A stretch of DNA of 39,455 bases from a virus (Duplodnaviria > Heunggongvirae > Uroviricota > Caudoviricetes), in IMG/VR virus record IMGVR_UViG_2526164602_000034; one strand, written 5' to 3'. Within the stretch, counting starts at the first letter, position 1; every line of letters starts with the position of its first letter. This document shows positions 21,267 to 23,360 of this stretch, in pieces. A program made the translations under genes and the position numbers. The notes beneath the pieces are model-generated. The model saw only the letters and a list, made by a program, of their open reading frames with translations, did no database searches and was not told the DNA's origin.

Positions 21267-21442
21267 TCCGGCAGCATAGGCCGGGAATTTTCAGGGCGGG
21301 TTTTGCGGGATTTCAGGAAGTGCTTCCAGGGGAAAAATACAAAGGCGCTTCACGCAGATTTTAAAGCCCGTTAAATACAGGTTAGAAAATCACGACACGC
21401 GCCTGAAGGGGGTAAGGTAATGCATTTGCATACCTTAAACAA

Positions 21443-21916
21443 TTAAGGCGTTTCTGTGGCCTTTTTAAAGCGTTTTCTGATTTCGTCCATGATCTCCTGC
21501 TCTGCCACCTGATCAAAACCCATATACGGACGTGCACCAATGGCCGCCGGTCCAGGCGGCATACCTGGCAGGCCACCCCACTGATGAATGGCCGCATAAG
21601 GCTCATTTGATCCAATCAGCGCCCAGGTATCGCCATAATCCGTGGTCAGGCGTCGGGCCAGATCGCCGTTCAGCGTCAGGATTTTGCCGGGCATGTTTCC
21701 CTTACGGGTACGCCACTTGCGGTAAGGATCTGACCAGTCATGCCAGCGTTCGCCGTCCGGCTCTTTTTCCTGTTCAAACGCCATTTCTGACGATGACAGA
21801 AGGCTGGACGCCACACTGCGGGCCAGGTCTTTTCCACCACCCACAAACTGAAGCCGGGCAAAGACCCGCTGGAGACGCGCAACGTCCACCACCACGGCTG
21901 CATCGATGGATGACAT
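21443..21916 (-). CDS. Virion morphogenesis protein, Mu G-like
   Basis: 157-aa ORF between the F-like and I-like genes. Confidence 0.65.
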   Translation of the reverse strand: MSSIDAAVVVDVARLQRVFARLQFVGGGKDLARSVASSLLSSSEMAFEQEKEPDGERWHDWSDPYRKWRTRKGNMPGKILTLNGDLARRLTTDYGDTWALIGSNEPYAAIHQWGGLPGMPPGPAAIGARPYMGFDQVAEQEIMDEIRKRFKKATETP

Positions 21917-21954
21917 GTTGCCTCCTTAAAACTATCTGATTAAAATAAATACAG

Positions 21955-22034
21955 GCCGGTGTACTCTTAACTGGTAAAGCGGCATAAACCCTCAGGGGTC
22001 ATATGTTTATGCGGGTTCGACCCCCGTCACCGGC
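21955..22034. other. Structured intergenic element between the F-like and G-like genes (nested inverted repeats)
   Basis: Outer 7-bp inverted repeat GCCGGTG (21955-21961) / CACCGGC (22028-22034); inner 8-bp repeat GCATAAAC (21982-21989) / GTTTATGC (22005-22012); small stem CGGG-TTCGACC-CCCG at 22012-22026. Confidence 0.45.
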
Positions 22035-23360
22035 TTACAATTTACCTTCCAGTAGTTCCAGCTTTCCGCCCTCTATTGCTTTTTCAATATCAAATTTATT
22101 TACCCGGTAAGCATTAATTACCACATCCAGCTTATCCGGCTGGCGCTTCACACCATAAGGCGCATTGACGGCAATCTTTGCCGTTCCGTCACGGGTTTCA
22201 GTGATGTAAAGCAGGTTCTGATGGACATGATCCCACAGCACGGCATCGGGGGCAGCCAGCATGGCGGGAAGCTGCGCGAAATCCTCCGGCGTCAGGGCGA
22301 TACCGTCATTCTGATGTTTCACACTGTCCGCATGGAGCACATTTTTACCGCTCATCGCCAGCAGGCGGGCCGGTGGCGTTCCTGTCCGGCTTTCCACTGC
22401 CTGCGCAATACTTTCGGTCATAAAGCCCAGCGTGCGGATATCGTGACCACCGCGCCGGGTTTTCATGATATTTTTTGCCCAGATGCGGAACGCCAGCTGC
22501 CGCTCCGGGCTGTTGTTCATCTCCTGAACCACCATTTCCCGTAACGCCGGGCTTTTCACCTCGATCAGTTTACGGATCAGCGCCTGGTCTGTGCCGAACG
22601 CCGCCGAACCGGGGTTATATGACCAGCCCACATCCGGTGTCATGGTTCTGGTGCCATCTGAATATGTGGTCACCGGCATTTCTCTGACTTCTCCGGTCTG
22701 TTTATCCACGCCAGCCTCAACATTGCGGGTGGAGAGATGATCCTCACCGGATGAAACGGATAACCCCATTGCATCCAGACGGGCCTGAGACAATGGCCGC
22801 ACACGGCAGCGGCAGTTCCAGCCATTGGGTGGGTAGTGTGTTTTCCAGAACGGATCATCATAGCGGAATACCAGACCGTTAAGGGTGGAATGCGACGGGC
22901 GGGTACGGCTGTCCATGACCGCCACATACTGCCAGAACGGATGCGTGTCCGTGTTGTTCATCATCTGCGTGTAACGCCCGGCATTGTAAGCCACGCGGGT
23001 GTTCACGTTGTAAATCAGCGCCAGACGGCGGGGACTGCCCAGCTGTACTTCTTCTGCGTTACCGGCGCTGTCCACCACAATCTGCTTCCCCCACCATCCC
23101 AGCTTTTGCAGGCGGGGTGTCAGTGTGCGGATAAATGCTTTCTGTGAAATCCCCTCATCAATGGCCCGTTGCACTTCCGCCTGTAGTGTGGTCAGTACGT
23201 CCAGGCGTGCCGCTTTTGCCGCCGTGAACGATCGGGCATGAACATCTGCGTCTGTTTCGAACCAGTTCCAGCTGATATGCGCCCCTTTGGCGCGGAAGTA
23301 TGCCACCGCCTCTTTTGAGGGAAGGGTGGCGGCATAACCTAAATCAATCCCCTGTGCCAT
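22035..23360 (-). CDS. Head morphogenesis protein, Mu F-like (SPP1 gp7 family)
   Basis: Contains HYPPNGWNCRCRVRP, the characteristic motif of this family; follows the portal gene. Confidence 0.8.
   Translation of the reverse strand: MAQGIDLGYAATLPSKEAVAYFRAKGAHISWNWFETDADVHARSFTAAKAARLDVLTTLQAEVQRAIDEGISQKAFIRTLTPRLQKLGWWGKQIVVDSAGNAEEVQLGSPRRLALIYNVNTRVAYNAGRYTQMMNNTDTHPFWQYVAVMDSRTRPSHSTLNGLVFRYDDPFWKTHYPPNGWNCRCRVRPLSQARLDAMGLSVSSGEDHLSTRNVEAGVDKQTGEVREMPVTTYSDGTRTMTPDVGWSYNPGSAAFGTDQALIRKLIEVKSPALREMVVQEMNNSPERQLAFRIWAKNIMKTRRGGHDIRTLGFMTESIAQAVESRTGTPPARLLAMSGKNVLHADSVKHQNDGIALTPEDFAQLPAMLAAPDAVLWDHVHQNLLYITETRDGTAKIAVNAPYGVKRQPDKLDVVINAYRVNKFDIEKAIEGGKLELLEGKL

Follow-up and report, generated by a model that had tools for sequence, protein, structure and literature searches.

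What does a Mu-like prophage keep in the gap between two of its head genes, at a place where phage Mu itself has no gap at all? The stretch of DNA analysed here (hereafter the window; 39,455 nt, IMG/VR record IMGVR_UViG_2526164602_000034) is the Mu-like prophage Sp18 of Escherichia coli O157:H7 Sakai together with flanking chromosome, and the 1.2-kb stretch that we tested matches NC_002695.2 at 100% identity. F and G, two late genes of the - strand, are separated by 118 nt, between the F stop codon (22035-22037) and the G start (21916). The original Sakai annotation left this gap empty, and PGAP, the NCBI annotation pipeline, labels the 81 nt that correspond to 21955-22035 "tRNA-OTHER" in many RefSeq E. 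coli genomes. A first-pass annotation made from the letters alone had noticed nested inverted repeats in the gap, too ordered to be spacer, and had offered minus-strand RNA processing or translational control, a protein-binding site or the remnant of an inserted element as their meaning. We find that the gap almost certainly holds a conserved + strand gene for a tRNA-like RNA of about 84 nt (21953-22036, core 21955-22035), antisense to F and G, and that this RNA is probably a partner, most likely an inhibitor, of the C-terminal MuF-C domain of the F protein.

The tRNA-like RNA gene between F and G

The Rfam covariance search proposed in the first-pass annotation gave the RNA its identity. At gathering thresholds over the whole window this search missed the element; only the local E-value search gave a match, to the tRNA model (RF00005) at 21955-22035 (+), with 31.4 bits against a gathering score of 29, and to no other family. 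The match skips a 15-nt insert that stands in place of the 7-nt anticodon loop, and ARAGORN reported no tRNA or tmRNA in the whole window. A model built for the family itself (R1) scores the gene at 85 bits (E = 1.6e-22); it is the single tRNA-like copy in the window, where the next-best match reaches 12 bits, and the same model finds nothing at the F-G overlap of phage Mu, even with filters off.

The reported repeats are parts of a cloverleaf that the earlier reader had missed. The outer, perfect 7-bp inverted repeat, recovered by our repeat search (GCCGGTG/CACCGGC, 21955-21961 and 22028-22034), lies within a terminal, acceptor-like helix of 9 bp, in which the 5' strand AG-GCCGGUG (21953-21961, +) pairs with CACCGGC-UU (22028-22036, +); no CCA is encoded, and the 3' strand overlaps the F stop codon. 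The GTTCGA stem-loop, also present as described (GCGGG-TTCGACC-CCCGT, 22011-22027), is the T arm of the RNA, GCGGG-UUCGACC-CCCGU on the + strand, and CTGGTA is the loop of a D arm, UCUU-AACUGGUA-AAGC (21965-21980, +), with equivalents of G18 and G19. The inner 8-bp repeat exists as letters, GCATAAAC/GTTTATGC within a 13-nt pair of 85% identity at 21977-21989 and 22005-22017, but it is not the conserved pairing. That pairing joins GCAUA to UAUGU and encloses a further hairpin, ACCC-UCAG-GGGU; the T stem takes in the GC of GTTTATGC. The resulting hairpin occupies the anticodon slot (21982-22006, +), with its upper stem and tetraloop at 21988-21999.

Compared with canonical and phage tRNAs (RF00005), the RNA has the cloverleaf, U8-A9, the 5-bp T stem, and a GUUCGA T loop and GG D loop of the kind that form the tRNA elbow (T-loop pattern GTTCRA), and an L-shape with an intact elbow is expected. 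It differs at both ends of the molecule. In place of a 5-bp anticodon stem and a 7-nt loop with U33 and an anticodon it has the 15-nt insert, folded as ACCC-UCAG-GGGU; because the anticodon arm is thus a closed hairpin with a UCAG tetraloop, the RNA is unable to decode. In place of a 7-bp acceptor stem followed by an unpaired discriminator and a 3' CCA, positions -1:73 and -2:74 are paired, and with this paired 3' end the RNA is probably not chargeable. Two more familiar identities were considered and set aside. An intron-containing tRNA does not fit inserts of 8-25 nt that are different in each type and always form a closed hairpin; mimicry of tRNA-Sec or tRNA-His, suggested by an acceptor helix of 8-9 bp, does not fit a helix whose length varies from 9 to about 14 bp in an RNA with no tRNA-Sec-like D loop, variable arm or anticodon.

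Homologues were gathered by pattern scans of viral, genome and metagenome collections. A strict DNA pattern had no matches in species-representative genomes and a looser one was needed, and a covariance model from the first 32 sequences found more divergent members. The 43 distinct homologues come from E. coli, Salmonella, Citrobacter, Edwardsiella, Shewanella and Rheinheimera. When they are laid on a scaffold of 18 pairs, 93% of cells are paired, versus 34-51% with the partners slid; changes on both sides, that is, compensatory changes, occur in 15 of the 18 pairs. Column shuffles, 500 in all, never gave values as high as these. The terminal helix has compensatory changes in 8 of its 9 pairs, including -1:73 and -2:74 (GC, AU, UA, GU), which makes it a helix of 9 bp and not of 7. 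The D stem covaries (GCUU/AAGU, GAAU/AUUC, GAUU/AAUC) within an arm that is nearly invariant across family alignments A1 and A3 (consensus GUACKCUUAAYNGGUAAAG), and in the T arm 99% of cells are paired and GGUUCRA is nearly invariant. The anticodon slot is hypervariable in sequence and length and is always one closed hairpin of 6-13 bp. All 32 folded sequences have this single closed hairpin, mostly with loops of 3-6 nt, and the more divergent members look no different; the loops are frequently stable tetraloops (UUCG, UCCG, CUUG, UCAG, UCAU) and occasionally 6-18 nt long, and no family member has a credible 7-nt anticodon loop.

That the gap is an ordered RNA element rather than spacer is therefore borne out, by the match to the tRNA model and by cloverleaf helices that covary across the 43 homologues. 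This verdict rests on comparative evidence and not on the folding energy of a single sequence, which is unremarkable on the + strand (z = -1.43, 13 of 200 shuffles as stable; z = -1.58 for the 84-nt version). The first-pass annotation had tied its reading both to conservation among close relatives and to a fold more stable than shuffled controls, and here the two part ways: the + strand fold barely beats its shuffles, yet conservation of the structure among relatives is very strong. The idea of an inserted element holds insofar as the gene is inserted by comparison with phage Mu, whose F and G genes overlap; that it would be a functionless remnant is contradicted by the covariation. A family of anticodon-less tRNA mimics in transposable phages, previously undescribed and covered by Rfam only through the generic tRNA model, is thus well supported.

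The same alignments tell which strand is the RNA. The family helices contain 38 G.U or U.G pairs and 3 A.C or C.A pairs, an excess expected only if the + strand is the RNA; the closing G.U pair of the T arm, for instance, would read A.C on the other strand. Upstream lies a predicted promoter of sigma-70 type, with a putative -35 hexamer TTGCCT (21918-21923, +) and, after 17 nt, a putative -10 hexamer TAAAAT (21941-21946, +). It has 9 of 12 matches to the consensus and is the sole match in 1.1 kb, where about one is expected by chance. The -35 hexamer overlaps the Shine-Dalgarno region of G (GGAGGCAAC ATG on the other strand), and its conservation is confounded by that ribosome-binding site. 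The predicted start, at about 21953/21954 (RNA position -2/-1), falls on the base that opens the 9-bp helix. A TAnnnT box 7-14 nt upstream of +1 is found in 33 of 36 distinct upstream contexts, in forms that include TATACT, TATGCT and TATAAT, often with an upstream TG, and it is kept even where F and G share no more than about 46% identity with those of the window; the exceptions are one locus (L039) and the downstream copies of tandem arrays. What stands of the first-pass annotation is a structured RNA and an insertion; the strand and the mechanism that it proposed do not.

The MuF-C domain of F and its association with the RNA

The gene that ends against the RNA, F (22035-23360, -), encodes a head protein of 441 aa with an N-terminal MuF domain (Phage_Mu_F, Pfam PF04233, residues 58-187, E = 2e-29) and a C-terminal MuF_C domain (Pfam PF18819, residues 347-434, E = 1.8e-8; 22059-22322, -). 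The literature classes MuF-C as a "PBECR" domain, a predicted RNase of the BECR fold, and reports that phage Mu's own MuF-C seems catalytically inactive while its orthologues seem active (Iyer et al. 2017, PMC5512222). Neither a target nor an inhibitor or phenotype of MuF-C was found in the literature. Comparison of F tails revealed a motif with two histidines, LHADSVKH (22314-22337, -), and, near the C terminus, a variable helix, NKFDIEKAIEGG (22065-22100, -), which AlphaFold2 (AF2) models place at H106-114.

Protein searches gave a shallow alignment of MuF-C: with the domain alone they returned only 15 partial proteins, and with the full-length protein only relatives of at least 65% identity. 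We read the F tails at 80 Mu-like loci fetched through the G protein. The RNA and an LxH(A/T)(D/N)(S/R)xKH...G motif in MuF-C occur together at 28 loci, one of which (L155) has a weak RNA match and a variant motif (..RRH..). All 18 of the RNA-less loci with an alignable MuF-C also lack the motif, both histidines being taken out by a deletion of 4-11 residues; these negatives differ at the NAPY and INAYR motifs as well, and their F stop abuts or overlaps G. At no Mu-like locus surveyed was the RNA found without the motif. On a tree of the rest of F the negatives, among them phage Mu, are spread over at least five separate clades, one of which is nested within a positive clade. At none of the 46 loci, whose F proteins are as little as about 41% identical, has either partner been lost without the other.

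The two also vary together. When the window is compared with close relatives, divergence in a region otherwise at least 92% identical is confined to islands over the hairpin of the RNA and over the final 35-95 codons of F. The type of hairpin also tracks the helix that follows INAYR: this helix is NKFDIEKAIEGG where the hairpin is of type A, as in the window (seen in two different phage lineages), KKEALLDDLRGG for type B, SRNTLIDAVQGG for type C and xNMDKLKxDIxGG for type D. Copies of the type A stem (AUAAACCC...GGGUCAUAU) are found again in a phage with a G only 72% identical, in a phage from a metagenome and in a satellite-like island, and they differ in the tetraloop alone (UCAG, UCCG, UCAA, UAAC). 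Phages with flanking proteins 89-97% identical carry wholly different hairpins. Within a type, then, the stem is under constraint, and phages exchange types with one another.

Co-occurrence and co-variation of the RNA gene with MuF-C are thus strict, and as far as our literature searches go the coupling is new. We consider it fairly likely that the coupling is functional. Beyond the 46 loci, three more have the RRH variant of the histidine motif and are negative for the tRNA-like model, and two distant loci (L137 and L139) have a different histidine-containing F tail; all five carry other promoter-preceded structured RNAs in the same place. Those of L122 (~1290-1400), L137 (~1250-1350) and L139 (~1320-1420; coordinates - relative to G) are antisense, with a -10 box and a closing helix of 8-9 bp. 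The RNAs of L122 (z = -2.2) and L139 (z = -5.5) fold as cloverleaves without tRNA loop sequences, and that of L137 as one long imperfect hairpin (z = -2.0). An arrangement in which an RNA gene follows MuF-C may therefore be broader than the tRNA-like family.

Copies elsewhere and neighbouring features

With few exceptions the RNA gene is found between F and G of Mu-like prophages, where every copy runs antisense to the late operon. This F-G region is present in 229 of 5,426 complete E. coli genomes, and the RNA occurs in Salmonella enterica too. Outside the gap, E. coli STEC17-183 carries an integrative satellite-like island of about 8.4 kb in mdtP (L078, NZ_CP075652.1 2238645-2246638), with genes for an integrase, a helix-turn-helix protein, Ash, an Icd-like protein, DUF4222, a RepA helicase, SSB, PerC and a Mor-family protein; it resembles a phage satellite, perhaps one of Mu-like helpers. 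The island ends in three tandem copies of the RNA gene, each like one of the phage hairpin types (L009:2996-3079, 3100-3193 and 3214-3298), co-oriented with the neighbouring genes in the tRNA sense. PGAP missed the first copy of this array and called the third 'tRNA-Tyr', a call that is probably an artefact of a GUA in its 6-nt loop. The acceptor stem is degenerate in the first copy of one island. Arrays similar to that of L009 occur in metagenomes, and in L064, L071 and L073.

Copies also occur singly outside F-G. A low-GC Mu-like phage in which gpT and Mor are present has the RNA gene at another place (L044:2294-2367, +, and L035); the L044 copy, whose terminal helix is about 14 bp long, lies in a non-coding stretch of about 700 nt adjoining a DUF2971 gene. 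In Rheinheimera soli an orphan of 74 bits (L050:5374-5452, +) stands among ordinary host genes, with no F or G phage gene near it, and the same locus is found in a related metagenome-assembled genome (L048). The orphan is about 190 nt from the degenerate end repeat of a type I-E-like CRISPR array (L050:5640-8000) of at least 37 repeats of 29 nt with 32-nt spacers, a position that may reflect chance or an association with a defence island. A 132-aa open reading frame beside it was considered as a MuF-C-like protein and dropped (hhalign probability 0.1). Mimicry of a CRISPR repeat, an idea prompted by AUAAACC in the hairpin and by this orphan beside an array, was likewise abandoned: similarity to type I-E or I-F repeats is no better than that of shuffles given the number of tests, the best p for the window being about 0.03. 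In a distant Mu-like phage (L116:1127-1435, -; F tail ..LAHANRPKH..), three tandem diverged copies of 28.7, 23.4 and 19.4 bits fill the F-G gap.

In the window the RNA gene is fitted tightly between its neighbours. The F stop codon (TAA on the - strand) overlaps the last two paired bases of the terminal helix (22035-22036), and the insert leaves no spare nucleotides on the F side. G, a virion morphogenesis gene and the downstream neighbour in the late operon (21443-21916, -; Pfam PF05069 and the list of open reading frames), is separated from the protease/scaffold gene I by a non-coding gap of 176 nt (21267-21442); the equivalent gap in phage Mu holds the annotated gyrase cut site. At the left end of the window, a match to the Rfam small RNA 5_ureB_sRNA (RF02514; 86.5 bits, 151-429, -) identifies host urease DNA outside the prophage.

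Proposed role, rival explanations and related systems

What might such an RNA do next to F? In MuF polymorphic toxins the immunity gene lies directly downstream of the toxin domain (Jamet et al. 2017, PMC5576092). Here that slot is taken by an RNA gene with a promoter of constitutive type and contains no open reading frame. Among characterised BECR toxins, colicins D and E5 cut the anticodon loops of tRNAs, and the immunity protein of colicin D has been described as a tRNA mimic. We propose that the RNA gene and MuF-C would form one genetic module, in which MuF-C would be the colicin-D-like, virion-borne RNase that the literature predicts and the RNA an uncleavable tRNA mimic, an 'immunity factor' or antitoxin, that would bind MuF-C and hold the RNase inactive in the lysogen, in the virus-producing cell and during assembly. 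The proposal is made because a tRNA body with a capped helix in place of the anticodon loop looks like an uncleavable pseudo-substrate. The variable hairpin and the variable MuF-C helix would be the cognate recognition pair, and the copies that stand without an F gene in satellites and chromosomes, as orphan immunity genes typically do, would serve as such genes and might protect their carriers from incoming phage. We infer that MuF-C is an RNase, that its natural substrate is tRNA and that the RNA binds and inhibits it, and the whole statement, from + strand tRNA-shaped RNA through module to inhibitor mechanism, has in our judgement a little under an even chance of being right. The more specific version, in which a type-specific pseudo-substrate immunity RNA matches a virion-delivered BECR tRNase, in pairs within phages and as orphan immunity RNAs that satellites and chromosomes (in one case beside a CRISPR array) would collect to protect them from the injected enzyme, we hold somewhat more tentatively still.

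Several points weigh against this proposal. Our literature searches found neither expression data for the locus nor any mention of it. The RNA gene adjoins the F tail, and swapping of cassettes could yield both co-occurrence and co-variation by linkage alone; this objection is countered by the fact that neither partner has been lost alone over the whole divergence sampled. The convergent orientation could make late transcription collide with the RNA gene just as F is made, and the sealed anticodon loop is an 'uncleavable' design only if the enzyme cuts there. Moreover, two loci (L017 and L024) share nearly the same MuF-C helix while the tops of their hairpins differ.

The same co-occurrence and co-variation would be expected if the RNA were a partner of MuF-C in some other capacity, as its substrate, as a cofactor or guide, or as cargo carried into the capsid with the DNA, which we consider unlikely. 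In favour of such a role, proteins of the MuF family are components of the virion and are thought to enter the cell by injection (PMC5512222), and a satellite packaged in Mu-like capsids could bring several types of RNA of its own. Against it, there is no precedent, a tetraloop-capped, sealed arm looks designed against cutting, and the chromosomal orphan with no phage nearby (L050) fits protection better than cargo. Similarly improbable, in our view, is an accessory gene of independent function (a 'moron'), such as a decoy for a host tRNA-targeting defence nuclease or a tRNA-binding factor, whose tie to the F tail is one of cassette linkage. It does have its own predicted promoter, it is also found in the satellite-like island and on a chromosome, and adjacency by itself can give linkage. 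It lies, besides, in the head-gene region, where Mu-like phages of Pseudomonas have anti-CRISPR genes. Against independence, the RNA and the histidine motif have never parted in the 46 loci, though each is dispensable in Mu-type phages. A decoy, for its part, would lack the anticodon loop, on which, to our knowledge, the known tRNA-directed defence nucleases act.

Regulation of the late operon in cis, by antisense pairing at the F-G junction or by transcriptional interference, is very unlikely. Between F and G the late transcript has perfect complementarity to the RNA, the two are always convergent in phages, and the -35 hexamer overlaps the Shine-Dalgarno region of G; but the RNA does not reach the G ribosome-binding site, tRNA-like RNAs, being tightly folded, make poor antisense partners, the covariation preserves a fold that pure antisense would not need, satellite and chromosomal copies are antisense to nothing, and the link to the histidine motif would go unexplained. 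The minus-strand readings of the first-pass annotation, an element of the late mRNA or a palindrome bound by protein as DNA, are barely credible. The - strand does fold somewhat better than its shuffles (z = -2.99, none of 200 as stable), yet the bias of G.U over A.C, T- and D-loop consensus sequences that can be read on the + strand only, the + strand promoter box and the orientation of the satellite copies all assign the conserved RNA to the + strand. Nor can much credit be given to a decaying, functionless tRNA pseudogene or integration-site remnant. The silence of ARAGORN, the destroyed anticodon loop and the degenerate acceptor stem of one island copy would suit it, but the D and T arms stay nearly invariant while the flanking proteins fall to 41-47% identity, and the compensatory changes, promoter box and closed hairpin conserved across several genera indicate purifying selection.

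Among known systems, MuF polymorphic toxins and polyvalent proteins (PMC5576092, PMC5512222) share with this locus a MuF head domain, a variable C-terminal predicted RNase, a small co-varying gene directly after it and orphans elsewhere. Position and co-variation of the downstream gene are thus those of a MuF module; unlike there, the gene is an RNA and not a protein, and is convergent, and the toxicity of the domain is putative. Jamet et al. treated GpF of Mu as a single-domain protein (PMC5576092). Conceptually the proposed pair would be closest to the type III toxin-antitoxin systems (ToxIN, CptIN, TenpIN), where an RNase is held inactive by an adjacent structured RNA, and the tandem copies of L009 and L116 recall antitoxin repeats. 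In those systems, however, the antitoxin is a tandem series of short repeats that precedes the toxin in one operon and is processed by it, whereas here a single cloverleaf gene with its own predicted promoter lies downstream and convergent, tandem copies occur only in L009-type islands and in L116, and the toxin would be of another predicted fold family and a domain of a virion protein. With colicin D-ImmD and colicin E5-ImmE5 the proposal has in common a BECR-type RNase blocked by a mimic of its tRNA substrate.

Small phage RNAs with tRNA-like features are also on record. The C4 RNA of P1 and P7 and the CI RNA of P4 undergo tRNA-like processing and confer phage immunity by base-pairing to phage transcripts through exposed loops. 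Like them, the present RNA is small, phage-encoded and like a tRNA precursor, with a variable segment that sets the type; unlike them, most of its loops are of 4 nt and the prophage offers no complementary target, and the Rfam C4 model gave no match at E <= 10. Antisense action in trans was discarded after a search of the window, where the hairpin has no match with three or fewer mismatches elsewhere; the longest stretch shared exactly, of 10 nt, is likewise on the + strand and hence not complementary. YrlA (a Y RNA) with its tRNA-like domain, the 'tRNA-Other' of Bacillus cereus and the tRNA-like domain of tmRNA are non-decoding tRNA mimics that, as here, keep the tRNA elbow for recognition and have lost decoding. 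In YrlA, by contrast, the acceptor end is closed and the anticodon end open; the partners of such mimics are Ro/Rsr and SmpB, and none lies in a Mu-like head operon or is tied to an RNase domain.

Full-text literature searches found no description of this tRNA-like RNA; a preprint on the small RNA Pas and the E. coli W genome paper, which seemed possible descriptions, proved unrelated on checking. The "tRNA-OTHER" flag is already set automatically in hundreds of pathogenic E. coli and Salmonella genomes, with no explanation in the literature found. Even if the idea of an inhibitor is wrong, these flags mark a well-supported new family of non-decoding tRNA mimics with a hypervariable arm. If the RNA is an inhibitor, it would give a direct handle on a widespread virion-borne enzyme, with tRNA as the likely target, and the phages would supply natural matched and mismatched RNase-RNA pairs for studies of specificity. 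An RNA gene could then fill the immunity slot of a polymorphic toxin system, which would make this the first such system with an RNA as its immunity gene and a new class of protein-RNA toxin-antitoxin pair.

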